DNA of 64,000 nt from Bacteroidia bacterium (GCA_030731845.1 JANQTF010000300.1:8471-72470), one strand, 5' to 3'. Shown: positions 3,501-55,418, counted from the first letter of the stretch. Translations and numbers: made by a program. Notes: generated by a model not told the origin, from the sequence alone.

Positions 3501-4412
3501 TTAGGGGCGCAGCAACTCATAGAGTACATCGAGCTTAGGGCTCAGGATGATCTCGGTGCGCCGATTTTTGCTGCGGCCTTCGGGGGTATCATTGGCAGCG
3601 ATGGGAAAAAATTCGCCTCTACCAGAAGCGGTGATCCGCTCAGCAGGGACCCCTTTTTTCATCAAAATACGAGAAACCGCAGTCGCACGAATGACGCTCA
3701 GGTCCCAGTTGTCATCAAATCGGGCGGTTTTGATCGGAATATTGTCGGTGTGCCCTTCGATCATGACCGAGATATCTGGTTTCTTGGCCAGCACTGCTGC
3801 CAATTGCTCCAGGGCAGTCACACCTTTGGGATCCACCGCAGCACTCCCGGATTTGAACAGCAGTTTTTCAGCCATAGACACATAGATTTTGCCGTTTCTA
3901 TTTTCTACGGTGAGCTCTTCGGCACTAAAGTTCACGAGGGCTTCTTCGATAGAGGCACGCAGGTTGTCGGTCGCCTCTTTTTGGCGATCGATTTGGTCGT
4001 TGAGTTCGTTGATCTTTTGAGTCTGGGTAGCGAGAAGCGCTTCTTTCTCTGCAAGCTCTTTCAACTTTTGAGTGAGGAGGGTTTGTGCGCGATCTATTTC
4101 AAGCTGCTTTTGCTGGAGTTCGGCAGATAGTTGCTGCTGATTGGAGCTGCTCGTTCGCTGAAGCGTAGCTTTCTCCTGGCTGATCTTTCTGATCTGAGTC
4201 CCAAGTTGGGCTGTGTCGGAAGTGAGGGTCGCTACCTGGGCTTTGAAACCCGCAAGCTGCGATTCCAATCCCGTGATAGAGGTATTTCTGGCTTTCACCA
4301 TTTGCTCAGTAGCCGCCAACTGGCTTTGACTGAGCTTGTATTTTTTAGAGGAAACACAGGAAGACACTAGCAAAGATGCCAAGATTATAAGAGCAAAAAT
4401 TCTAAGATTCAT
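3501..4412 (-). CDS. OmpA/MotB-domain lipoprotein with long coiled-coil linker
   Basis: Start at MNLRIFALIILASLLVSSC (lipobox; cat at 4410-4412). A Q/L/E-rich coiled coil follows. The C-terminal OmpA-like domain reads IEGHTDNIP...SVIRATAV...GRSKNRRTEI. The 413-aa track ORF is an upstream over-extension. Confidence 0.85.
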   Translation of the reverse strand: MNLRIFALIILASLLVSSCVSSKKYKLSQSQLAATEQMVKARNTSITGLESQLAGFKAQVATLTSDTAQLGTQIRKISQEKATLQRTSSSNQQQLSAELQQKQLEIDRAQTLLTQKLKELAEKEALLATQTQKINELNDQIDRQKEATDNLRASIEEALVNFSAEELTVENRNGKIYVSMAEKLLFKSGSAAVDPKGVTALEQLAAVLAKKPDISVMIEGHTDNIPIKTARFDDNWDLSVIRATAVSRILMKKGVPAERITASGRGEFFPIAANDTPEGRSKNRRTEIILSPKLDVLYELLRP

Positions 4413-5503: not shown

Positions 5504-6583
5504 ATGGAGTTGACCCTGATTCGCCGCTGTGCCCTTCTGGTTTTACCTATGCTGCTCGTAGCATGTCGCCCTGATCCTGTTACGCCGGATCTTTATGAGG
5601 TGCCCGCCATCATTCAGCCCTATGTGGATGCATTTGAGATGGAAGCTGCCAAGCGCGGCATTGAACTCGATATTTCCAACCTTCAGGTGGAGTTTACCAC
5701 CGACCTCGACGACGGCAAAGGCAATGAAGCCGCCGGACTCTGTCACTTCCAAAGTGCCAGCAATCCTACACCCCGCATCGAGCTCGACACCACGTCTTTC
5801 AACTGGCAAAACAACCTCTACCACCGCGAGATCCTCGTCTTCCACGAGTTGGGCCACTGCATCCTCAATCGCCTGCATCGCGACAATGAGCTTCCCAATG
5901 GCAACATAGCCTCCATCATGCGTAGCACCGGAGAGCAGGTCTATGGAGGCATTCTTAACGGCTTCAAGCGCGATTATTATATCGACGAATTATTCGACGA
6001 AAACACCCCTGCACCAGATTGGGCCACCAATCAGCCAGCCTATAATTCTGCGAGCTATGGCGCAAACATCTTTATCGATGAATTTGTGGATAACCGCAAT
6101 AGCTGGCCTTTGGGCAACAGCACCAACAGCCGTACGGCCATTCAAGGCGGCGATTTTATTTTTGAATCGAAGTCTGAGACAAGCGCATTTTTCCTCACCA
6201 AAAATGTGCTCATCGACACCGACAAAGATTTCGAAATCGAAGCACGCATTAAACTCGCGAGTGGGGAGCGTCCGGCCTTACTCCAATGGGGTGGCAACGA
6301 CGGCAGCGATTTGTACTTCTTCGGATTTTCTCGTGACAGCTCAATTCTAGCAGGCAATTGGCAGGAAGGTCTTGTGCTAGGCCAGCAAAGTCCACGCGTG
6401 AAAGCAGATGATTACAATGTACTCACCATCCGAAAAACCGGAACCTTCTACCACATCTATCTCAACGGTGAGTATCAGGAAATTTTTGAATTTGAGCCAT
6501 TCTTTGGCAACAAGATCGCTTTCTACATCGGGCAGCAATCTACCATGCAGGTAGATTATCTCCGAATCAGAGAGCTGTTGTAG
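5504..6583 (+). CDS. Putative zinc-metalloprotease lipoprotein with C-terminal jelly-roll/lectin-like domain
   Basis: Lipoprotein signal (LPMLLVAC). HExxH motif in ILVFHELGHCILNRLH. The C-terminal ~170 aa are beta-rich (FEIEARIKL...YNVLTIRKTGTFYHIYLNG). Family not identified. Confidence 0.55.
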   Translation: MELTLIRRCALLVLPMLLVACRPDPVTPDLYEVPAIIQPYVDAFEMEAAKRGIELDISNLQVEFTTDLDDGKGNEAAGLCHFQSASNPTPRIELDTTSFNWQNNLYHREILVFHELGHCILNRLHRDNELPNGNIASIMRSTGEQVYGGILNGFKRDYYIDELFDENTPAPDWATNQPAYNSASYGANIFIDEFVDNRNSWPLGNSTNSRTAIQGGDFIFESKSETSAFFLTKNVLIDTDKDFEIEARIKLASGERPALLQWGGNDGSDLYFFGFSRDSSILAGNWQEGLVLGQQSPRVKADDYNVLTIRKTGTFYHIYLNGEYQEIFEFEPFFGNKIAFYIGQQSTMQVDYLRIRELL

Positions 6584-45563: not shown

Positions 45564-48500
45564 ATGAAATACACAACGATGCTTTCATTTTTGCAAAGGA
45601 TCCTCCTCCTTGGCTGGGGATGCCTCCTCCCGGCATTCGGACAAGTTTCTTATCAGGCGTCCTATCATCAGGGTGCAGGAAATCCCGGTGGCCTCAACCA
45701 GGAAACTGACTTTAATACCGTGGGCTGGAGCGAGCTCATGGGCGGAAGCCTGCTGAGCAACCAATGGTCCAACCCAGGAAATATTCCGTTCAATTTTGAA
45801 TTTTTTGGGCAGCAGGTTTCCTTTTTCCGCGTAAGTGCCAACGGGCTTGTCACCTTTGACATGACCCCCTCTGCCCCTCCGGGCAATAATAGTCTCCTCC
45901 CCTCAGCACTGGTACCCGATAGCACAATTGTCTGCTTCTGGGACCAATTCACCATTTCGCCTCCTACGGGCAGCAACGACAAGGTTCAGACCAAGATATT
46001 TGGTACTGCCCCCAATAGGCAGCTCTGGATTCGCTGGGAATCGTATGAATGGGGTGCTTGTAGTTTTGCCTATCTGGCCGTTGTTCTGAATGAAGGAAGC
46101 AACAAAATCCACCTCGTGGATCTGTATAGCAGCACCAATGCCAGCCTCGTCAGTGCCACAGTTGGGATCCAGGCCAACGCGGGATTTGCCGTGAGTGCGG
46201 CTCACAACGTGCCGCTTTCGGGAGCCGGGTCTGGCAATAGCGACAATAGCTACTACACCTTTACGCCCTATCTCATTGAGCCTTATGATATGCAAGCCGT
46301 TGGCATCACGGCTCCGGCAGGCGATGGCTGCGGTCTTGGTCAGGAGTCTGTTTCGATTAAGCTAAGCAATGTGGGATTATTCACGGCCACTGGCATGACA
46401 GCGAGATTGTCTGTGGATGGAGGAAGTTTTTCCGCGCCTGAGCTGATTCCGGGCAGCCTGGCTCCCGGCGATACCATTTCATTTACCTTCGCCACCAAAG
46501 CCAATCTTTCCAGCATTGGCTCTCATTCTCTCAAGGTGGTATTGTCAGTAGCAGGCGACAACAACCCCCTGAATGACACGATGAGAACCTCCCTGAGCAA
46601 CCTGGTGAGTGTAAGCACTTTTCCTTATCAGGAGAATTTTGAGAATGGCAGTGGCGGATGGACACCCGGCGGCACCAACTCTTCCTGGGCCATGGGCTAT
46701 GCCAATAACCCCACGATACAAGGAGCTCCTTCGGGCGTAAATGCATGGATCACCGGGCGCACAGGCACCTACAACAGCAATGAAAACTCGTGGGTCATGA
46801 GCCCTTGTTTTGACCTGACCACGCTCGGACCACAGGCGGTGATCTCGATGAATATCTGGTGGGAAAGTGAATACAGTTGGGACGGCGCCGTGCTTCAATC
46901 CTCTATAGACGGAGGCCTCAGTTGGCAGCGAGTTGGAAAATTTGGAGACGGGAGTAACTGGTATAATGACAACACGATCAACAGCTTGCCCGGCGGGCAG
47001 CCCCATGGCTGGTCCGGCCAAAGTGCCGGAGGCACCGGATCAGGGGGCTGGGTGCGTGCCCAGGCCAAATTGGGTTCTGCCCTCCTTGGCGAGCCCAAAG
47101 TGCTTTTCCGCTTTGCCTTCAGCTCAGATGGCTCCAGCAACCTCGATGGCTTTGCCTTCGACGATGTCACCATTGGCAATGCCCCGGTGATCAACCTTGG
47201 CAACAACGCCTTCTTCTGCAATGGCCATCAACTCGATGCCGGAGCAGCAAATGCCACCAATAGCATCAAGTGGTCAACAGGAGCCACTACCCAAAAAATC
47301 ACCCTCCTCAACGCTACCCAAGGTGCCATCATCGACTCTATGGTCACCGTTTCCGTCACCGATTCCAAAGGTCTTGTAGGGCACGATACCATCATTTTTT
47401 CCATGACATTGCCTCCCACAGCTCAGATTGTGGACGTGACCAAAGTCGCTTGTTTTGGCGAATCTACGGGAGCCATTGATCTCAACATGGCAGGCGGAGC
47501 CTCGCCTTTCACCTACGCCTGGTCCAATGGCGCTTCGGTTCAGGACCCCACAAATTTGCCCAAAGGCACATATAGCGGTGAGGTCATCGACATCAACGGC
47601 TGCAAAGCATTTATCCCCTCCGTCACCGTGACAGAAAACCCCAAACTCTCACCTAGTGCCAACATCGAGTCCGTGCTTTGCCACGGCGACAGTACAGGCT
47701 CTGTGCAGCTAGGCGCAAGTGGCGGCGTAGGACCATATCAGTATCTTTGGACTGACGGAAGCACCAATTCTTTTCGCAGCCAATTGGCCTTTGGCACCTA
47801 CGCTGTGGTGGTGACCGACAGCAAAGGGTGTCAGAAAAATCTCGAAGCAGAAGTCACCCAACCCGAACCACTGGCGCTTTCAGCACAAATTGCTACAGAC
47901 GCCAATTGCATCGACTCATTTGATGGAAAGATTGACCTCACTTTCGACGGAGGGACCACTCCTTACAGCTATTTCTGGGACCATGGCAGCAATGAAGAAG
48001 ACCCGACGGACCTGGCACCAGGCAGCTACTCAGGCTATGTGCTTGACTCCAACAACTGCTTTTTCCAGTTGCCAGCCTTCGCCATTTCCTATAGCGACTC
48101 TATTCCTGAGGCTGGATTTGGCTTCGGCATGGCCGGCGCACAGGTAGGATTTAAGGATAGTTCACAAAGGGCTGCCAGCTACTTCTGGGATTTTGGCGAC
48201 GGACAAAGCAGCACCGACCCGCAACCAGGGCACTTGTATGAAGAAAATGGAATATTTACCGTGACACAGATTGTGAGTAATGCTTGTGGGAGTGACACAA
48301 TTACCCGGGAGGTCAATATTATCTCCGCCTCCCTCCAAAGTGAGTTGAACGTTTCGGTGCAATTGTATCCCAACCCGAGCAAAGGCAGCTTTGAGATCAG
48401 TCTCGGCGCCACGTGGGCCGGAAAGGGCATCATCGCGGTTCACAATATCAATGGGCAGGAGGTGTGGTCTGATACCCGAATCCTCAGTCCCGGGATAAAA

Positions 48501-48599
48501 ATTGAGGTTACGCTGCCGCAGACACTTTCCAAAGGCCTTTACCTCGTGTCAGTGAAGCTAGGTGATCAGATGATCATGAAGAAGCTGGAGCTGAGATAG
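45564..48599 (+). CDS. Large T9SS-secreted surface protein (MAM-like region, SprB repeats, PKD domain, Por C-terminal sorting domain)
   Basis: Signal peptide present. Four units of the type CFGESTGAIDLNMAGGASPFTYAWSNG...GTYSGEVIDINGC are SprB repeats. FWDFGDGQSSTDPQPGHLYEENGIFTVTQIV is a PKD domain. The C-terminal VQLYPNPSKGSFEI...GLYLVSVKLGDQMIMKKLEL is the T9SS CTD. Confidence 0.85.
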   Translation: MKYTTMLSFLQRILLLGWGCLLPAFGQVSYQASYHQGAGNPGGLNQETDFNTVGWSELMGGSLLSNQWSNPGNIPFNFEFFGQQVSFFRVSANGLVTFDMTPSAPPGNNSLLPSALVPDSTIVCFWDQFTISPPTGSNDKVQTKIFGTAPNRQLWIRWESYEWGACSFAYLAVVLNEGSNKIHLVDLYSSTNASLVSATVGIQANAGFAVSAAHNVPLSGAGSGNSDNSYYTFTPYLIEPYDMQAVGITAPAGDGCGLGQESVSIKLSNVGLFTATGMTARLSVDGGSFSAPELIPGSLAPGDTISFTFATKANLSSIGSHSLKVVLSVAGDNNPLNDTMRTSLSNLVSVSTFPYQENFENGSGGWTPGGTNSSWAMGYANNPTIQGAPSGVNAWITGRTGTYNSNENSWVMSPCFDLTTLGPQAVISMNIWWESEYSWDGAVLQSSIDGGLSWQRVGKFGDGSNWYNDNTINSLPGGQPHGWSGQSAGGTGSGGWVRAQAKLGSALLGEPKVLFRFAFSSDGSSNLDGFAFDDVTIGNAPVINLGNNAFFCNGHQLDAGAANATNSIKWSTGATTQKITLLNATQGAIIDSMVTVSVTDSKGLVGHDTIIFSMTLPPTAQIVDVTKVACFGESTGAIDLNMAGGASPFTYAWSNGASVQDPTNLPKGTYSGEVIDINGCKAFIPSVTVTENPKLSPSANIESVLCHGDSTGSVQLGASGGVGPYQYLWTDGSTNSFRSQLAFGTYAVVVTDSKGCQKNLEAEVTQPEPLALSAQIATDANCIDSFDGKIDLTFDGGTTPYSYFWDHGSNEEDPTDLAPGSYSGYVLDSNNCFFQLPAFAISYSDSIPEAGFGFGMAGAQVGFKDSSQRAASYFWDFGDGQSSTDPQPGHLYEENGIFTVTQIVSNACGSDTITREVNIISASLQSELNVSVQLYPNPSKGSFEISLGATWAGKGIIAVHNINGQEVWSDTRILSPGIKIEVTLPQTLSKGLYLVSVKLGDQMIMKKLELR

Positions 48600-48771: not shown

Positions 48772-48878
48772 CAGATCTCGATACGAATAGATTTTGCGCT
48801 CCTACATAAAGTCATACTTTACGTTAAAAATTTTGACATAAAATTACCCTTATTGTTTGGGAAAGCCAGCAGCGATGC
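48772..48878 (-). pseudogene. Remnant of the 5' end plus upstream region of a DUF4143 ATPase gene (copy of 52931-53031)
   Basis: 48808-48878 aligns with the sequence upstream of the ATPase-3 start. 48807..48772 reads ATG TAG GAG CGC AAA ATC TAT... (M * E R K I Y) against MYERKIY in ATPase 3, so it is a nonsense-disrupted 12-codon stub. Confidence 0.75.
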
Positions 48879-48950
48879 GGTATCGACAGGTGCGGGCAGT
48901 TTTGGGGAGCTGTATGGTGGGTGGAAAGAGTAAACTAGTAGCAGCACATC
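48866..48950. repeat. Conserved non-coding element E, copy A (adjacent to palindrome A)
   Basis: Aligns with 50408-50506. Shared AGCAGYGATGCG start, invariant 18-mer GTTTTGGGGAGCTGTATG (48899-48916 = 50441-50458) and shared AGAGTAAA. Copy B carries a 15-nt insertion. Confidence 0.7.
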
Positions 48951-48981
48951 CGCAGATTGAAAATCTGATTTTCAATCTGCG
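48951..48981. repeat. Palindrome A (14-bp arms) 14 nt downstream of the ATPase-1 stop
   Basis: CGCAGATTGAAAAT-ctg-ATTTTCAATCTGCG. Confidence 0.9.
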
Positions 48982-48994
48982 AATTATCTCAGTC

Positions 48995-50125
48995 TTACGC
49001 CCCTACAAATTCAAAAAAATTTTGCCGGTGCACCACCGCCGGATCACTTCCGGGATAGGCAGCCAGAAAGGCTTTGGGTATCTGAGCGGAGGTTTCCGGG
49101 TTCCACTTAAACTCAAAGGCAGACAGTTTGCCACCGTAATCTTCGATGTAATCAATCTCCTGGCGGGAAGTGGTGCGCCAGAAATACATATTGGGCCCAT
49201 AGCCTGAATACAGGTTTCGTTTTCGCCGCTCCACTATCAGGAAGTTTTCCCACAGCGCACCCTTATCCTGTCGCAGGGCCATGGGATTGAAGTTCCGGAT
49301 AATGGCATTCCGGATACCGGTGTCATAAAAATAGATTTTCCGGCCCTTTTTGATTTCGTTTCGAGCATTCCGGCTCAGGGAAGGCAGCCTGAATACCACG
49401 AATGACTGCTCCAGTAAATCAATGTAGCGCTCTACGGTGGCAGGGTCTGCCCCGACGATCTGCGCCACTTCATGGTATTGTACTTCCTGCCCTAACTGTA
49501 AGGCAAGCGCCTGCAGAATTTTAACAATCAGACTCGGCTTTTTCAGTTGATCCAGCATCAGCAAGTCCTTGTACATCAGGCCCTCACTCAGGTCAGTCAA
49601 AAGGCGTACAGCTCCTTCAACCCCGCCTGTTACCACTTCAGGATAGTAACCATAAATCAGGCGTTGTTCGAGCAGGGCATGCTCTGTCAGTCGCCCGTGG
49701 TAAGCCTGCATTTCGGCGAAGGAGAGGGGCAGCAGGGTAAAGTCGTACTTGCGGCCCGTGAGGCTTTCCTTGGTTTGAGCAGCTATGTCCAGCGATGAAG
49801 ATCCTGTTACCAGCAGATGCACCTCTGGAAAATGGTCTGTGATCAGTTTAAGGGTCAGGCCTGCATTGGTCAGCCGCTGGGCTTCATCCACCACCATTAC
49901 CTTGTAGTTTCCAATCAGGGGTTTAAGTTGGGCAAGAGAGATGCCGCTGAGTGCCTCCCTGATGGCTGGGTCGTCGCCGGTAAGCCACAACACAGGTTGT
50001 TCGAGCCCATTTGCCAGCCGGGTAACAAGGGTTGTTTTGCCAACCTGCCTTGGGCCTGTGAGCACTATGGCTTTTTTGGGACTGATAAACGGCTGGATTT
50101 GTCCTTCGAGGAGTCTTGGAATCAT
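48995..50125 (-). CDS. AAA_14 + DUF4143 ATPase, paralogue 1
   Basis: Walker A GPRQVGKTT, Walker B VMVVDEAQ, a central wHTH-like region, and C-terminal RQEIDYIED...SAFEFKWN (D...ExK, PD-(D/E)xK-like). Confidence 0.85.
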   Translation of the reverse strand: MIPRLLEGQIQPFISPKKAIVLTGPRQVGKTTLVTRLANGLEQPVLWLTGDDPAIREALSGISLAQLKPLIGNYKVMVVDEAQRLTNAGLTLKLITDHFPEVHLLVTGSSSLDIAAQTKESLTGRKYDFTLLPLSFAEMQAYHGRLTEHALLEQRLIYGYYPEVVTGGVEGAVRLLTDLSEGLMYKDLLMLDQLKKPSLIVKILQALALQLGQEVQYHEVAQIVGADPATVERYIDLLEQSFVVFRLPSLSRNARNEIKKGRKIYFYDTGIRNAIIRNFNPMALRQDKGALWENFLIVERRKRNLYSGYGPNMYFWRTTSRQEIDYIEDYGGKLSAFEFKWNPETSAQIPKAFLAAYPGSDPAVVHRQNFFEFVGA

Positions 50126-50150
50126 CTCCTAAAATACACCCAGTTGAGGC

Positions 50151-50204
50151 CAAATCGAAAAATTCATTCATTTTTTTCGATTTGAATCGAAAAATTCATT
50201 CATT
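50151..50204. promoter_or_regulatory. Inverted plus direct repeat cluster upstream of ATPase 1
   Basis: 12-bp perfect inverted repeat CAAATCGAAAAA (50151-50162) / TTTTTCGATTTG (50173-50184). 20-nt direct repeat AATCGAAAAATTCATTCATT at 50153-50172 and 50185-50204. Lies 26 nt upstream of start codon 50125. Confidence 0.4.
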
Positions 50205-50344
50205 ATTTCCGATTAGGTCCTGTGCGAAAAATACCCCGGACCAGAGGGCCAATTCATAACACGATCATCTCGCCACCAGATGTTCAGGAGAACCGTCCTC
50301 CTTCTTCGCCCAATTGGGCACTTTCCCTCCATCCAAAACACACG

Positions 50345-50395
50345 CCCTCCCCACACAAAACCCGCAAACTCGCTGCGTGGCGGGTAGCGGTAATC
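50345..50395 (-). pseudogene. Remnant of the 3' end of an ATPase-3-like gene
   Basis: The reverse complement encodes YRYPPRSEFAGFVWGG against GRYPPRSEFMDFIWGG at the C-terminus of ATPase 3. The 24-nt string AACTCGCTGCGTGGCGGGTAGCGG is shared with 51815-51840. Confidence 0.6.
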
Positions 50396-50407
50396 CGGGC
50401 ACTCACA

Positions 50408-50506
50408 GCAGCAGTGATGCGTTGCCGATCAGTTCGGGCTGTTTTGGGGAGCTGTATGATGGCGGAGGTGAATGGTGTGGGGAAGAGTAAAATGGCGGCC
50501 GCATGC
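50408..50506. repeat. Conserved non-coding element E, copy B
   Basis: See copy A. Lies between the 3' remnant and palindrome B. Confidence 0.7.
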
Positions 50507-50539
50507 CCGCAGATTGAAAATCTAACTTTCAATCTGCGG
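50507..50539. repeat. Palindrome B (13-bp arms) overlapping the ATPase-2 stop codon
   Basis: CCGCAGATTGAAA-atctaac-TTTCAATCTGCGG. The right arm encodes the last residues PQIE and the stop codon lies in the loop. Confidence 0.9.
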
Positions 50540-51706
50540 AAAAGATGCAAGATACTCCGGAAATCCTCTCCACCCCACTACCTTGCCCTGGCTGCGAGCC
50601 TGTTGCAGGTCACCGCCATAGATGAGGGCGGTTTCGGCGGTGTCAAGGCCGGAAATTCCTGCGAAAAATGCCAGATTATGGAAAAAATCAGGCTGTATGG
50701 TCTGCCCTGATTTGATTTCGAATGGGTGCAAGTGGCCACCGGTGTCAAACAGCAGATCAATTTCATGCCCGCTGCGGTCGCGCCAGAAATACAGCGGCAT
50801 GCGGATACCACGGTTGTAAAAACTTTTGAGCGCCTCCACGATCACAAAGTTTTCAAATAAGGCACCCCGCGCATAGTGGGTCTCCAACTCACCAACCGTG
50901 CGAATACCCAGCAGGTAGCAGGCCAGGCCCGTGTCGTAAAAATAAACCTTGGGCGTCTTGACGAGTTGCTTATTGAAATTACGGAAGTAAGGCGGCAGGG
51001 TGAAGGCGATGAAGCTGGTCTCCAGCAGAGAAAACCATTTTTTCACTGTCGGGTGAGAAAGCCCGGCCTCGGTGGCAATGGCACTCTGGTTGAACAACTG
51101 CCCTACCCGCCCGGCGGTGAGCCGGGTGAAGAGCTGAAATTGTTGTAGGTCGCTGACCTGGATCAGTTGGCGTAAATCCCGCTCTACGTAAGTTTGTAAA
51201 TAGCTGGAAAAGAACAGATTAAGATCTACCCCCTGATCAAAAATCCTGGGGTACCCTCCGTTGAGAATCAGCTGCCAGGCAGATGTTGTGGCAAAATCGG
51301 TAGGCTGGAGTTCGTGAAAGCTAAGAGGCAGCAAATAGAATATTGCCACCCTGCCTGCGAGGCTTTGGGTGATACGCTCCATGAGCAGAAAATTCTGCGA
51401 GCCGCTCAGCACAAAAGCCCCGTTTTGCTTCTGTTCATCCACCAGAACCTGGATGTAGGAAAACAGCAAGGGCGCATACTGGGCTTCATCAATCACCATC
51501 CCGTTAGGACCCTGGGCAAGAAAGCCGCGAGGGTCATTGAGGGCAAATGATCTCGTTTCGGGGTCTTCAAGGTTGGCGTAGAAGTATCCGGGAAAAAGCT
51601 GGCGGCACAGGGTTGTCTTGCCCGATTGCCTTGGCCCTGTCACGCTCACCACAGGCATTTGGGTGGCTGCATCGCGGATTCGGGTCGCCAAATGTCGTTG
51701 AATCAT
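50522..51706 (-). CDS. AAA_14 + DUF4143 ATPase, paralogue 2
   Basis: Walker A GPRQSGKTT, Walker B GMVIDEAQ, and C-terminal GHEIDLLFD...HPFEIKSG. Confidence 0.85.
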   Translation of the reverse strand: MIQRHLATRIRDAATQMPVVSVTGPRQSGKTTLCRQLFPGYFYANLEDPETRSFALNDPRGFLAQGPNGMVIDEAQYAPLLFSYIQVLVDEQKQNGAFVLSGSQNFLLMERITQSLAGRVAIFYLLPLSFHELQPTDFATTSAWQLILNGGYPRIFDQGVDLNLFFSSYLQTYVERDLRQLIQVSDLQQFQLFTRLTAGRVGQLFNQSAIATEAGLSHPTVKKWFSLLETSFIAFTLPPYFRNFNKQLVKTPKVYFYDTGLACYLLGIRTVGELETHYARGALFENFVIVEALKSFYNRGIRMPLYFWRDRSGHEIDLLFDTGGHLHPFEIKSGQTIQPDFFHNLAFFAGISGLDTAETALIYGGDLQQARSQGKVVGWRGFPEYLASFPQIES

Positions 51707-51720
51707 ACAGCAAGATAGGC

Positions 51721-51767
51721 AAATGATCCGCAGATTGAAAATTGGATTTTCAATCTGCGGATCATTT
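51721..51767. repeat. Palindrome C (perfect 22-bp arms) in the 72-nt gap between ATPase 3 and ATPase 2
   Basis: AAATGATCCGCAGATTGAAAAT-tgg-ATTTTCAATCTGCGGATCATTT. Confidence 0.9.
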
Positions 51768-51778
51768 CTCCGCCAAGC

Positions 51779-52960
51779 TCACCCCACCATGCCGCCCCAG
51801 ATAAAGTCCATGAACTCGCTGCGTGGCGGGTAGCGGCCAATCAGCTGGGTCTCCTGGAGGCCCAGAGAAGTGGCGCGGGCCACCAAAACGGATGAGTCAG
51901 AGGGAGTGGGGGTTTCTTTGACCTCAATGGCGGTCTGCCGGTCCAGAATAAAATCTATTTCCTGACCCGTTTTGAGCTGAAAATAGCTGAGCGAACCCAG
52001 TCGCATGAGCTGGAGCGCGATGGCATTCTCAAACAAAGCCCCGCTGCTGACCTGCGCCAGTTGGCTGATCAAGCCTGTATCTGCCAGATACATCTTCGGC
52101 TGCACGGCAATCGCCCGGTCTGTGTTGGCGGAGTAAGGCTTGATCAGATGCAAAAAATAGGTCCGCTCCAGCAGATGCAGATAGTCTTTGACCTTGTGGC
52201 GGCTGATCCCGATCAAGGAGGCCAGCTTGGTATAATCCAATCGGCTCCCAATTCGGGACGCTAGCAAGCTCACCAGGCGGTACAGGTCATCTATCGCAGT
52301 GTAGTCAGACAAGAGCTTGACATCCAGCTCGATATATGAATTCAAAACATCTTTCAGGAGGCGTACTTTTTTGTCTGCCGTACCTGCCAGCACCACATCA
52401 GGGAAGCCGCCATACTGGATAAACTCCTCGTAGTGTGCCGTGTATTGCGCATAGAGCGACTGCCGGTAGGGCTTCAGCCGGAAGGCTTGCAGGGGGCTGC
52501 TGTCTATCTCCTTGAAAGTCAAAAATTCCTGAAAGTCAAGGGGATACATGTCGAAAATCTGCTTTCTGCCCGCCAGACTTTCGGTGATGCGGTTGCGCAG
52601 GTAATAGGAGCTGGAGCCTGAGATGATGAATTTGACCGAAAAATGATCGTGGTAATATTTGATAAATGAGACCGCATCCGGAACCAGTTGCACCTCGTCG
52701 AGTGCGATGACTGCAGGCTGGCTGAAGTCGATTCCTTTGATTTCGAGATCTGTTTGAATCTCACTAAAGTTGTTCTGTGTGAAAATGGCCCTGTCCTCAA
52801 TTCGTTCGAGATCGAGGTAAAGCTTGTTGTCATGGGGCGTCTGGTCGAGGAGATAGCGGAGTGCTGTGGTTTTCCCTACGCGGCGCATGCCCGTGATAAC
52901 GCTCACTTCTTTCTCAGCGAGATGGCTGAGCAGATCAGGATAGATTTTGCGCTCATACAT
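51779..52960 (-). CDS. AAA_14 + DUF4143 ATPase, paralogue 3
   Basis: Walker A GMRRVGKTT, Walker B VIALDEVQ, and C-terminal GQEIDFILD...TAIEVKET. Confidence 0.85.
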   Translation of the reverse strand: MYERKIYPDLLSHLAEKEVSVITGMRRVGKTTALRYLLDQTPHDNKLYLDLERIEDRAIFTQNNFSEIQTDLEIKGIDFSQPAVIALDEVQLVPDAVSFIKYYHDHFSVKFIISGSSSYYLRNRITESLAGRKQIFDMYPLDFQEFLTFKEIDSSPLQAFRLKPYRQSLYAQYTAHYEEFIQYGGFPDVVLAGTADKKVRLLKDVLNSYIELDVKLLSDYTAIDDLYRLVSLLASRIGSRLDYTKLASLIGISRHKVKDYLHLLERTYFLHLIKPYSANTDRAIAVQPKMYLADTGLISQLAQVSSGALFENAIALQLMRLGSLSYFQLKTGQEIDFILDRQTAIEVKETPTPSDSSVLVARATSLGLQETQLIGRYPPRSEFMDFIWGGMVG

Positions 52961-53038
52961 AAAGTGATACTTTACGTTAAAATTCCTGACATAAAGTTAC
53001 ACTTAATGCTTGAAAAAGCCAGCAGCGATGCTGTGTTG

Positions 53039-53316
53039 AGTCGCATGAGCTGGAGCGCGATGGCATTCTCAAACAGAGCCCCGCTGCTGACCTGCGCCAG
53101 TTGGCTGATCAAGCCTGTATCGGCCAGATACATCTTCGGCTGCACGGCAATCGCCCGGTCTGTGTTGGCGGAGTAAGGCTTGATCAGATGCAAAAAATAG
53201 GTCCGCTCCAGCAGATGCAGATAGTCTTTGACCTTGTGGCGGCTGATCCCGATCAGGGAGGCAGTTTGGTATCATCCAGTCGGCTCCCAATTCGGGACGC
53301 CAGCAGGCTCACCAGC
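53039..53316 (-). pseudogene. Internal fragment of ATPase 3, duplicated just upstream of the intact gene
   Basis: Near-identical by eye to 51999-52287 (offset 1040). It has a few substitutions and a 1-nt deletion (GGCCAGCTTGG versus GGCAGTTTGG). It encodes ...HLIKPYSANTDRAIAVQPKMYLADTGLISQLAQVSSGALFENAIALQLMRL, which equals residues ~225-320 of ATPase 3. Confidence 0.85.
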
Positions 53317-53459
53317 CAGTGCGGGTCAAAGGCCTATTTGGATAAATAAGGAAGAGGGAGCCTGGAGAGCATTCCCTCCAGCTCGTCGGCTAGCCTTTCA
53401 TGCAACTTTTTTGATCTTCTTCGTTCAATAATCACACCCTTCACAAGAACCCGGTGACT

Positions 53460-55418
53460 ATGCACGCATTCCTCAGACCCCTTCTTTCTTTCCTGATCCT
53501 GACAAGTTCTTTTCTCGCAATGGCCCAAGACAAGCCCAAGGATTACGGAATCAGCTCAAAAAAAGCACTCGAATTTTATCTGGAGGGGCAGCAGCAATCG
53601 CAGTGGCGGGCCTACCGCGAGGCCGCCAAGGCCTACGAAGAAGCGATCAACATTGAGCCTGAGTTTGCACAAGCGCATCTTCAACTCGGGATTACGGCTT
53701 TTTTGCTCGATAAGTCAGATGTTGCCGTGACCTATCTCACCAAAGCGCGCGAATTGCGCCCGGAGGAGTATCCGGCATTGGAATACTACCTCGGCCTCGC
53801 CGAATTTGACCAGGAACACTATGCCGAGGCCGCTGCTGCATTTGCCACCTATCTCGATCAAAAGTCGGGCAGAAAGGTGGATATAGAAAAGGCTCAAAGC
53901 CTCCTCAAGCATTCGCTTTTTGCCGCCGAGGCGATCCAGCATCCGGTAGATTTTGAACCCGAAAACCTCGGCCCCGCCATCAACACCCAGTATCACGAAT
54001 ACCTGCCCTATCTCACCGCCGACAACGGCATGTTGCTCTTTACCAGCCGCCGGCCAGAGAGCATCGGCGGATATCAGGCCATGCTCCGCGATTTTTCTGA
54101 AGATTTTTTCTATTCCGTGCCAGGAGAAAATGGCGAATGGCTCCCTGCCGAAAACCTGGGCACGCCCATCAACTCTGCCGAAAACGAAGGCGCAGCGGCT
54201 ATGAGTCAGGATGGCCGGGTGATCATTTTCACGGCTTGCAACCTGCCCGGAGGCGTTGGCAACTGCGATTTGTATGCCTCCTTTCGGCAAGACAAAGGCT
54301 GGTCAGAGCCACAAAACCTCGGGCCACAGGTGAACAGCGAAGGCTGGGATTCGCAGCCATGCCTCTCTCATGATGGCAAAACCCTCTACTTCTCCTCCGC
54401 CCGCCCAAACGGACAAGGCGCGCGCGACCTCTGGTACAGCACCTGGGATGGCCAAAAATGGGGCCCCGCCAAAAATCTCGGAGGGCCTGTCAATTCGCCC
54501 GGCAACGAAGATTCTCCTTTCCTCCACGCCGATGGGCTCACGCTCTATTTTTCCTCCGATTACCATCCCGGCTTCGGCTCTCAGGACCTTTTTGTGAGCT
54601 ATCGGCAGGAAGGTGGCGCCTGGAGCGACCCAATCAACCTTGGCTATCCGCTCAACACCTCGGCCGATGAGAGCAATATCTTCGTAGCGACCAATGGCCG
54701 CGAGGGCTATATCAACTCCGACCGCGACGGTGGGCTCGGGGGCAGCGATCTATACCGCTTTGTGATGCCAGAGGAAGTCAGACCCGAAATTTCCACCTTC
54801 CTGCGTGGGGTGGTCAAGGACAGCGTCACAAAAGCGCCTGTATTTGCCGCCATTGAGGTGATCGACATCGAAACCAATGATACCCTTCGCAATGTCAGGT
54901 CAGGAAAAAGTGATGGCAAATTTCTCATGAGCCTGCCCGGTGGCCGCGACTATATTGCCTATGTGCAGGCGCCCAACTACCTTTTCACCAGCCAAAAATT
55001 CTCGCTCAAAACCTTGCAGGAGGAAACCTATTTCGATCTGACCATCCTGATGAAGCCCCTGGAAAGCGGCATGCAGATCGTGTTGCCCAATATTTTCTAT
55101 GAAACGGGGAGTTGGCAGCTTACCGCGGGCTCTGGTCCCGAACTCCGCACCATGGCCCAGTTTCTCACGCGAAACCCGAGGATTTCCATTGAAATACAGG
55201 GACACACCGACGATGTGGGCAGCGACCGCGACAACCTGAGCCTGAGTCAAAAGAGAGCGGAATCTGTGAAAAATGCCCTGATTGAATTGGGGATTGATCC
55301 CGGAAGATTACAGGCCAAAGGGTATGGAGAGACAACCCCTGTTGCCGACAACGGCACCGAAGCCGGCAGAGCATCCAACCGCCGCACCGAGATGAAAATC
55401 ACCGATGCTGGACGATAG
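53460..55418 (+). CDS. TPR + TolB-like (PD40/WD40-like) beta-propeller + OmpA-domain protein
   Basis: Signal peptide MHAFLRPLLSFLILTSSFLAMAQ and N-terminal TPRs. Repeated PINS..NEG.P..S.DG..LYF units form the propeller. The C-terminal IEIQGHTDDVGS...NLSLSQKRAESV...NRRTEMKI is the OmpA domain. Confidence 0.85.
   Translation: MHAFLRPLLSFLILTSSFLAMAQDKPKDYGISSKKALEFYLEGQQQSQWRAYREAAKAYEEAINIEPEFAQAHLQLGITAFLLDKSDVAVTYLTKARELRPEEYPALEYYLGLAEFDQEHYAEAAAAFATYLDQKSGRKVDIEKAQSLLKHSLFAAEAIQHPVDFEPENLGPAINTQYHEYLPYLTADNGMLLFTSRRPESIGGYQAMLRDFSEDFFYSVPGENGEWLPAENLGTPINSAENEGAAAMSQDGRVIIFTACNLPGGVGNCDLYASFRQDKGWSEPQNLGPQVNSEGWDSQPCLSHDGKTLYFSSARPNGQGARDLWYSTWDGQKWGPAKNLGGPVNSPGNEDSPFLHADGLTLYFSSDYHPGFGSQDLFVSYRQEGGAWSDPINLGYPLNTSADESNIFVATNGREGYINSDRDGGLGGSDLYRFVMPEEVRPEISTFLRGVVKDSVTKAPVFAAIEVIDIETNDTLRNVRSGKSDGKFLMSLPGGRDYIAYVQAPNYLFTSQKFSLKTLQEETYFDLTILMKPLESGMQIVLPNIFYETGSWQLTAGSGPELRTMAQFLTRNPRISIEIQGHTDDVGSDRDNLSLSQKRAESVKNALIELGIDPGRLQAKGYGETTPVADNGTEAGRASNRRTEMKITDAGR

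Follow-up and report, generated by a model that had tools for sequence, protein, structure and literature searches.

A Conserved Palindrome at the Start of A2-Type PDC-S01 ATPase-Nuclease Genes Is a Candidate Cognate Operator

Introduction

A 64,000-nucleotide (nt) stretch of DNA from a Bacteroidia bacterium (GCA_030731845.1, JANQTF010000300.1:8471-72470; hereafter the window) carries three copies of one palindrome (PAL1, PAL2, and PAL3) among three diverged genes for DUF4143 ATPases (A1, A2, and A3). We found that the palindrome belongs to the 5′ end of genes of the A2 type, and that it is one variant of a site whose two half-sites keep a fixed distance from each other throughout the family. 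On these comparisons, the palindrome is best read as the cognate, operator-type DNA site of the A2-type PDC-S01 protein, probably with an autoregulatory role, and we give this reading a probability of roughly 0.55.

PDC-S01, an ATPase fused to a PD-(D/E)xK domain, is an unvalidated single-gene candidate for phage defense (PMC12988326). It is reported to rank fourth in frequency among defense candidates across prokaryotes, where it numbers tens of thousands of copies (PMC12988326; bioRxiv 10.1101/2024.09.26.614923), and when candidates were tested in E. coli, four were reported to be protective, none of which was the PDC-S01 representative (bioRxiv 10.1101/2024.09.26.614923). DUF4143 itself is a domain of unknown function with the PD-(D/E)XK fold (PMC3424549). 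A1, A2, and A3 share this make-up of ATPase plus PD-(D/E)xK domain (AAA_14 plus DUF4143, or COG1373).

In what follows, G000 is the genome of the window (5.26 Mb in 390 contigs), other G-numbers are genomes of relatives, C-numbers are contigs, L-numbers are loci or contigs (metagenomic ones included), and p5 to p8 are further DUF4143 paralogues in G000. PAL denotes a copy of the palindrome, and its core is the 29-nt sequence GCAGATT-N15-AATCTGC, written more fully as GCAGATTGAAA-N7-TTTCAATCTGC. Coordinates of all features are collected in Table 1.

Results

The palindrome marks the starts of A2-type genes

The three copies had been reported by a reading of the window from its sequence alone (the sequence-only reading), and all three were located. 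The window contains six half-site matches when up to two mismatches are allowed, against 0.89 expected, and 0 of 100 shuffled sequences reached six, which confirms the three-copy observation and places it far above chance. PAL1 lies 13–14 nt past the A1 stop codon and PAL3 lies 12–20 nt beyond that of A3. The loop of PAL2 contains the TAG stop codon of A2, one arm codes for ...PQIES*, and the only difference between its arms is a G.T on the minus strand.

The sequence-only reading described a palindrome that follows each of the diverged ATPase genes. The positions stand, but the palindrome is not a mark of gene 3′ ends: the eight DUF4143 paralogues of G000 that lie outside the tract have no such palindrome past their stop codons, and a general 3′ element of DUF4143 genes was rejected on this ground. 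It is tied instead to the 5′ end of A2-type genes. As the genes run from right to left, PAL3 is both after A3 and directly before A2, and the palindrome appears after A3 because A2 comes next. PAL3 occupies the 72-nt gap between the A3 stop (51779) and the A2 start (51706), ending 14 nt before the A2 ATG, with its 29-nt core ending 23 nt before it.

The core was found just 5′ of one type of DUF4143 gene both in relatives and in metagenomes, where a relaxed pattern returned 19 contigs. The linked genes encode proteins with the N-terminus ...TGPRQSGKTTL. Among 14 distinct A2-type genes, the distance from the end of the core to the ATG is 20–25 nt in 13 and 10 nt in the remaining one. The proteins that keep the core are only 44–49% identical to A2, whereas the core is almost unchanged, and the contigs that carry it range from 38 to 67% G+C. 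Retention of the half-sites across this range upholds the proposal of the sequence-only reading that the element has a sequence-specific role and is not an ordinary terminator.

The genes upstream of the palindrome are unrelated to one another (they encode a 2-oxoglutarate oxygenase, a sigma-54 activator, an ABC transporter, a response regulator, and others), and the upstream gene often ends just 7–38 nt before the palindrome. Because the upstream neighbor differs each time, the palindrome and the ATPase gene form an autonomous module. No Shine-Dalgarno sequence follows the 5′ copy of the palindrome. By eye, we noted a TAnnTTTG-like box 3–4 nt before the ATG in L016 and L018, which we take to correspond to the Bacteroidetes -7 consensus, and a TATCCT box about 10 nt before the ATG in high-G+C contigs, presumably a sigma-70-like motif. 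Together with the lack of a Shine-Dalgarno sequence, these visually assigned boxes suggest that the leaders are short or absent and that the site would be centered near -37.

The half-sites keep a fixed distance throughout the family

The comparison drew on 63 distinct regions upstream of A2-like genes, taken from the order and from metagenomes. Inverted GCAAATT-like half-sites are present in 48 of these regions (44 of 1890 in shuffled sequences), and in 42 of the 48 pairs the spacer is exactly 15 nt (2 of 44 in the shuffles); the right half-site ends either about 5 nt or about 22–24 nt before the start codon. The anatomy of the site in the window is that of two 7-bp half-sites (GCAGATT/AATCTGC) that lie 15 bp apart, or 22 bp from center to center (about two helical turns), on either side of an inner block that is usually symmetric (GAAAAT nnn ATTTTC).

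The 15-nt spacing is retained where the center is unable to pair, as in L142 (AGAA atcgaac TTCT), L154 (TGG gagtcgggt CCA), L117 (CAA cattcaata TTG), and L134. A distance between half-sites that is fixed whatever fills it points to a symmetric DNA-binding protein, as an RNA hairpin has no need of one; this argument is drawn from sequence statistics. A protein-binding site is accordingly the best supported of the functions that the sequence-only reading had listed, while an RNA-processing signal and the recent spread of a small palindromic element (the copies number 1–5 per genome) are the least supported.

The half-sites occur in several variants: GCAGATT (in the window), GCAAATT, ACAAATT, GCTAATT, GTAAATT, and GATAATT. 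The variants differ among paralogues of one genome, and changes are mirrored in the two halves; the site of L074 and L116, TCCAAATTAAAAAT, equals PAL at 10 of 14 positions. We rejected the idea that identity of the palindrome simply tracks identity of the protein, as L074, at 70% identity, has an altered site and proteins at 44–49% keep PAL. This puzzle is resolved because all of the sites are variants of one architecture.

Across the whole of G000, the perfectly symmetric sites of the N15 architecture are the four PAL copies and the putative operator of p6, against 0.3 expected. Perfect inverted repeats stand upstream of 5 of the 11 G000 paralogues (in 100-nt windows), compared with about 0.05 expected from the genomic frequency of 43 perfect inverted repeats per Mb with arms of at least 12 nt. 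Such repeats also lie at most 28 nt from the start codon in 10 of 31 DUF4143 genes from other families of the class; control windows have none (0 of 31). The paralogues p5, p8, p6, A1, and p7 have palindromes or repeats of their own at the equivalent upstream place, each of them distinct and single-copy. The inverted repeat before A1 is embedded in a pair of partly palindromic 30-nt direct repeats; its arms are identical before the A1-like gene of G023:C42, where the loop differs and the genes are about 72% identical. The imperfect repeat before A3 is likewise kept before the A3-like gene of G023, as ACTTTACGT-N11-ACGTAAAGT.

Two further observations concern these paralogues. The palindromes of p5, p8, and p6 (39–46 nt) are among the longest perfect inverted repeats in G000 other than A-tract/T-tract terminators. 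The p7 gene is preceded by three exact direct repeats, TTTACCATGAAAATTTAAA, that are 32 nt apart and iteron-like (C14:19748-19830).

A2 is predicted to contain a winged helix between its ATPase and nuclease domains

All three proteins of the window match AAA_14 and DUF4143 in Pfam (PF13173 and PF13635) above the curated cutoffs, and they match the PDC-S01 hidden Markov models of PADLOC with E values of 1e-151 (A1), 4e-101 (A2), and 3e-62 (A3), although their mutual identity is only 26–31%. G000 encodes 11 full-length DUF4143 paralogues with pairwise identities of 22–46%. A search of NCBIfam gave nothing useful, and a search by sequence found no solved structure.

In an alignment of 63 homologues, G29-K30-T31 and D73-E74 (Walker A and B) are invariant, as are E315/D317 and E330-x-K332. 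An AlphaFold model of A2 built on this alignment (mean predicted local distance difference test score, pLDDT, 93.8; predicted template modeling score, pTM, 0.92) shows an AAA+ core, a unit of three helices plus a β-hairpin at about residues 185–257, and then a nuclease-type sheet. The best Foldseek matches were AAA+/STAND proteins in which a winged helix follows the ATPase (PABY2304, NLR/Apaf-1-type proteins, and Orc1/Cdc6 on origin DNA); DnaA, RuvB, and MuB were also matched, and the best matches to the nuclease part were Can2/Cdn1. From the model, residues of about 185–257 can be confidently predicted to form a winged-helix-like unit.

The start of the predicted recognition helix (A2 residues 216–221) tracks the inner block of the operator. 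The residues (S/T)-H-x-T pair with GA(A/G) in every PAL type and in L127 and L128, D-x-K-T pairs with nGG (7 of 7), S-V-N-T with TGCA (2 of 2), and S-Y-Q-T with AGA (2 of 2). These pairings fall in separate clades of a tree that was built without the winged-helix domain. Where H has been replaced by Q inside the well-supported A2 clade, the operator has changed as well, from GCAGATT-GAAAA to (C/A)CAAATT-(A/C)AA. This covariation supports direct readout of the site by the product of the gene itself, short of proof.

The palindrome is rare

G000 contains four copies of the palindrome, the three in the window and one on contig C67. It is present in 8 of 52 genomes of the family, with 1–5 copies in each (a reversed control pattern gave 0 matches), and none of 400 other genomes, sampled evenly across the phylum, has it. 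Among about 185,000 species genomes it was found in only seven contigs, all from uncultured Bacteroidia. Collections of plasmids and phages gave matches at chance level only, and we rejected a plasmid or phage element on this basis.

This search through the genome and its relatives was one that the sequence-only reading had proposed, naming a repetitive extragenic palindromic (REP)-like element scattered at high copy number as the outcome that would speak against it. The search returned the four copies in G000 and a fixed place relative to A2-type genes, and we rejected a high-copy REP-like repeat.

Duplicated sites, relics, and a recombined array

Some genes are bracketed by two copies of their own variant of the site. 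This is the case for A2 in G000, G023, and G048, where the 3′ copy overlaps the stop codon of A2, and also for the genes at L114, L124, L073, and L037. The bracketing copies are near-identical, imperfections included. About one gene in three has a site at each end, and many family members have the 5′ copy only. Because such brackets recur and their copies are near-identical, PAL2 is most simply read as a 3′ duplicate of the A2 site. At L037 (3613-3694; MKWU01000604.1), we also observed tandem palindromes 53 nt apart before the A2-type gene, of which the second is the variant GCAATTTG...CAATTTGC, and a third palindrome past the stop codon.

Relics of A2-type and A3-type genes accompany the palindrome elsewhere. 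In G015, a leader of about 24 nt comes after the palindrome and runs directly into the terminal 13 codons (NGQVRSWNHLPG*) of an A2-type gene, the intact form of which is present in G014. G023:C42 retains the final 30 or so codons of an A2-type gene (LAYGGDLNQSRSQGRVLG...) between the stop codon of an A3-like gene and a degenerate 3′ palindrome. L017 and L022 contain internally deleted A3-type stubs that end at the palindrome, and in L050 the palindrome is joined to the C-terminal third of an A2-like gene. At this last locus (283-2214; WNGA01042373.1), the palindrome is within a 643-residue open frame whose last 110 or so residues match the A2-like C-terminal part, and the sequence suggests a scar of fusion or truncation there.

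No ATPase gene accompanies the copy on C67, which occupies an ordinary spacer; its neighbors are an aconitase-like gene with a classic terminator of its own and a gene for a secreted protein. The copy is part of about 230 nt of extra spacer that are missing at the syntenic G023 site. The sequence past this copy (GGAGATTTTTGGTCGTGGCGTCTGCCTCTAG) faintly resembles the leader and last codons of the G015 relic.

PAL1, a solo-type copy, is a junction whose two flanks have different homologues. Its A1 side is homologous to G023:C42, and the homology begins exactly at the palindrome. Its other side, a segment of about 85 nt (X), is homologous to the flank of PAL2 (X′) and to G023:C24, not to G023:C42; X is not beside the A1-side palindrome of G023:C42. 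The 18-mer GTTTTGGGGAGCTGTATG is invariant in X and X′, and the counterpart of this segment in G023:C24 (L013 4420-4540) is the 3′ end of a plus-strand, YD-repeat-like open reading frame (ORF) (...SYDAAGNRIQRR...). We considered X as a conserved small ORF and rejected this, as its substitutions are mostly non-synonymous (judged by eye); we treated it as a hitch-hiking fragment of the neighboring ORF in G023:C24. On sequence, both PAL1 and the copy on C67 look like relics or joints of recombination.

A 1.39-kb unit that comprises X′, PAL2, A2, and PAL3 is 94% identical between G000 and G023:C24, compared with 59–75% for the orthologous flanking proteins there. The homology stops about 8 nt past PAL3 and extends about 115 nt beyond PAL2. 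The disparity in identity and the break near PAL3 indicate that the unit moved recently and that the palindromes mark the breakpoints. The order of A1, A2, and A3 also differs between G000 and G023. In G023, the A2 unit has a direct repeat of about 25 nt on each side (L013 ~4335-4360 and ~5830-5855; ...GGA(C/T)CAGCCCTGCACGCCGCAG...), which reads DQPCTPQ in the plus frame and could be either a duplicated target or paralogous ORF segments.

Discussion

The arrangement described above suggests how the site may work. A symmetric dimer or oligomer of A2 would bind the palindrome, as double-stranded DNA, through the winged-helix domain. PAL3 would overlap the A2 promoter, because 23 nt separate its core from the start codon and the sequence after it lacks a Shine-Dalgarno motif, and binding there would repress transcription of A2. 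PAL2 would be a duplicate of the site at the 3′ end of A2, in an arrangement that recurs in the family, and PAL1 and the C67 copy would be solo sites that remained when A2-type genes were rearranged or lost. An operator accounts for the link to one subfamily, the distance from the start codon, the spacing that is kept without pairing, the paralogue-specific variants, and the winged helix with its covariation.

Several observations weigh against this reading, and some of them fit better with a hairpin that acts in RNA or single-stranded DNA, either as a bidirectional terminator or insulator against readthrough or by stabilizing or processing mRNA ends, with sequence conservation being secondary. 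The palindromy often runs 3–9 bp, and once 25 bp, past the 29-nt core in sequences that differ from copy to copy; the extension is at least 3 bp in 26 of 42 copies, which is superfluous for a minimal operator and needed for a hairpin or terminator. The outer parts of several Bacteroidia copies look like terminators, with an A-tract, a GC stem, and a T-tract. Eight solo copies lie between convergent genes, nine between co-directional genes, and one between divergent genes, which is a terminator-like placement, and the 5′ copy is usually wedged right behind a co-directional upstream gene. Long perfect stems and the mirrored changes in the two arms (L022, L049, L038, and L015) would be expected of a hairpin as well. 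The operator reading is further weakened by its promoter, which was assigned by eye from consensus motifs and not by a tool, and by the helix–operator correlation, which is partly phylogenetic and has an exception in L039 (Q with an unchanged operator).

We nevertheless consider a purely RNA-level or single-strand role improbable. The 15-nt spacing is kept where 7–11 central bases cannot pair, and a terminator has no need of half-sites that are conserved across contigs of 38–67% G+C. A scan for a stem plus a T-tract called none of the three window copies, whose AT-rich stems lack a T-tract, in agreement with the remark of the sequence-only reading that no clear U-tract accompanies them. Rfam has no family that matches the palindrome (the sole hit was a sub-threshold match to a microRNA hairpin), and a known RNA family was rejected as a candidate. 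Three 5′ copies face a divergent upstream ORF. Differences confined to one arm give no consistent sense-strand G.U, with L018 and L037 in the wrong direction; as a test for an RNA hairpin, this strand-specific asymmetry was abandoned, as the cases are too few and contradict each other. A double role, in which the site serves both as an operator and as a barrier to readthrough, is plausible because the module is tightly packed behind upstream genes.

A somewhat stronger alternative, though still an unlikely one, is that the palindromes are att-like ends of a mobile site-gene-site unit, whose genes are inserted, excised, and shuffled through recombination at these ends, carried out by the encoded protein or by host functions, and whose excision leaves solo copies behind. 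It draws on the near-identical bracketing copies with their shared imperfections at A2 and the four other loci, the 94% identity of the A2 unit between different contexts, the breaks of homology at PAL3 and PAL1, the changed gene order, the placement of the module directly after the stop codons of unrelated genes, and the extra spacer around the C67 copy. But the unit carries no recombinase or transposase gene, no target-site duplication was seen, and the paralogues within a genome, being 22–46% identical, are not recent copies. The relics (G015, G023:C42, and the A3-type stubs) are not clean excisions but imprecise deletions of gene interiors, with a few terminal codons kept, the transferred unit reaches about 115 nt past PAL2 on one side, and many family members have the 5′ copy alone. 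Of the recombination site or cassette boundary that the sequence-only reading also offered, the breaks of homology at the palindromes are borne out, and a recombinase, clean excision, and target duplication are not. Such a role may coexist with an operator role. In a bolder and rather doubtful version, the PDC-S01 protein would recognize the bracketing palindromes and use them beyond autoregulation, either to delimit a cassette that can be excised and moves horizontally or to supply the "self" reference from which a sequence-directed nuclease takes its specificity, and the variants of the paralogues would prevent cross-talk.

The symmetry of the site implies a symmetric DNA-binding protein without naming it, and a separate, trans-acting host transcription factor could be the binder in place of the ATPase-nuclease. 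As the half-sites of many paralogues are alike (GCAAATT-like), one factor could read several of them, which counts against the operator reading in its cognate form. This seems to us quite improbable, since no gene other than that of the ATPase stays linked to the site across unrelated neighborhoods and distant lineages, the variants differ among paralogues of one genome, and the helix residues covary with the operator variant. Very remote, in our judgment, is a small mobile palindromic element, such as a miniature inverted-repeat transposable element or a REP-like element, that spread recently and is near the ATPase genes by chance. Near-identical copies in different contexts, and the fact that some copies have the core at the tip of terminator-like outer stems, would fit such an element. 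However, the high copy number and the lack of gene association that it requires were looked for and not found: genomes have 1–5 copies only, the palindrome was met in 0 of 400 other genomes of the phylum and in seven contigs of about 185,000 species genomes, its distance to the ATPase start is fixed, it is but one of the variants, themselves single-copy, of a family-wide site, and solo copies can be traced to deleted genes.

Comparison with known systems places the site, as an element, among ordinary operators. Archaeal Orc1/Cdc6 proteins have inverted repeats (origin recognition boxes, or ORBs) beside their own gene, and plasmid Rep proteins have an inverted-repeat operator. The A2 site resembles these and the autoregulatory operators of winged-helix or helix-turn-helix proteins in having inverted half-sites at a fixed helical spacing upstream of an AAA+ winged-helix gene, in differing between paralogues, and in covarying with recognition-helix residues. 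It differs from them in that A2 adds an intact PD-(D/E)xK nuclease, the site is long (a 29-bp core with up to 47 bp palindromic) and is often duplicated 3′ of the gene, there is no evidence of replication, and binding by A2 is a prediction.

Integron attC sites and the pdif modules of Acinetobacter bound genes with short recombination sites. The likeness is that single genes lie between short, partly palindromic sites, that their order is shuffled between genomes, and that homology breaks at the sites. Unlike attC, however, the palindrome copies lack the R″/R′ core sites (RYYYAAC/GTTRRRY), as read directly from their sequence, and no integrase or Xer context turned up, although no search was aimed at an integrase. 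In addition, attC is conserved at its base and variable at its center, whereas here the half-sites and their spacing are conserved and go with one protein subfamily. Set against an insertion sequence or transposon, the picture is mixed: about a third of genes have a site at either end and there is one clear recent transfer between genomes, no target duplication was seen, and the paralogues are 22–46% identical.

REP sequences and bacterial interspersed mosaic elements are also short intergenic palindromes, some of them at gene 3′ ends, but they number tens to hundreds rather than 1–5 per genome and have no fixed place relative to one gene family. Rho-independent bidirectional terminators share with the palindrome the stem-loop between genes, the A- or T-tract flanks of several Bacteroidia copies, and the avoidance of divergent intergenic regions by solo copies; they differ from it in that the stem here is AT-rich, conserved in sequence across distant lineages, and constant in spacing without pairing.

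For the PDC-S01 family, we found no earlier description of such an operator in searchable papers, and a search for cis-elements of COG1373, AAA_14, or DUF4143 genes gave nothing relevant there. PDC-S01 is very common and has no validated activity and no known ligand, and a gene-linked site offers a concrete and cheap entry point: it makes the DNA specificity of PDC-S01, any self-repression, and any action of ATP or the nuclease on the site directly testable. Long perfect palindromes and "orphan" palindromes in Bacteroidia could be explained as operators and their relics, and such palindromes should not be taken for terminators or mobile repeats. If the more speculative reading of a self-recognizing, bracketed unit were true, a very common and unexplained prokaryotic family would become a sequence-programmed DNA-targeting system.

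Other Features of the Tract

Table 1. Coordinates of the palindromes, ATPase genes, and associated features (window positions unless a contig is given)
Feature	Position	Strand	Description
PAL1	48951-48981		Core 48952-48980; annotated span 48948-48984; perfect 14-nt arms CGCAGATTGAAAAT/ATTTTCAATCTGCG, 3-nt loop CTG
PAL2	50507-50539		Core 50509-50537; annotated span 50507-50540; single arm mismatch; overlaps A2 stop codon
PAL3	51721-51767		Core 51730-51758; perfect 22-nt arms; 5′ site of A2
C67 copy	C67:2045-2089		19-nt arms, 7-nt loop
A1	48995-50125	minus	376 aa; PDC-S01 paralogue, 31% identical to A2
A2	50522-51706	minus	394 aa; AAA+ ATPase, winged helix (predicted), and PD-(D/E)xK nuclease; PDC-S01
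A3	51779-52960	minus	393 aa; PDC-S01 paralogue, 27% identical to A2
A1 upstream element	50151-50214		12-nt inverted repeat CAAATCGAAAAA (50151-50162)/TTTTTCGATTTG (50173-50184); 25 nt before A1 start
A3 upstream imperfect inverted repeat	52969-52997	minus	ACTTTATGT ... ACGTAAAGT; 8 nt before start
p5 upstream palindrome	C2:9715-9759		22-nt arms; GAATATT-N15-AATATTC, N15 architecture
p8 upstream palindrome	C262:2088-2133		23-nt arms; no obvious N15 fit
p6 upstream palindrome	C358:8644-8682		16-nt arms; GTAAATT-N15-AATTTAC, N15 architecture
X	48867-48950		Beside PAL1; about 81% identical to X′; contains 18-mer GTTTTGGGGAGCTGTATG
X′	50395-50506		Beside PAL2; within 1.39-kb unit
Dead A3-type stub	48780-48886	minus	Promoter region and first codons; codon 2 now TAG
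A3-type remnant	50346-50390	minus	Last 15 or so codons (RYPPRSEF...)
A3-type internal fragment	53039-53385	minus	53039-53262 is a 99% copy of 51999-52222

The ATPase tract is flanked by genes for a 1011-residue SprB-repeat/PKD protein with a type IX secretion sorting domain (45564-48599) and for a TPR/PD40/OmpA-family protein (53454-55418). In three congeners, these two flanking genes are on separate contigs, so that the tract coincides with a break of synteny, and a search of the three congeners for an empty site of the whole tract was uninformative on account of this break. Pieces of A3-type genes are scattered through the tract (Table 1), and the 99% identity of the internal fragment to its counterpart suggests a recent duplication or gene conversion.

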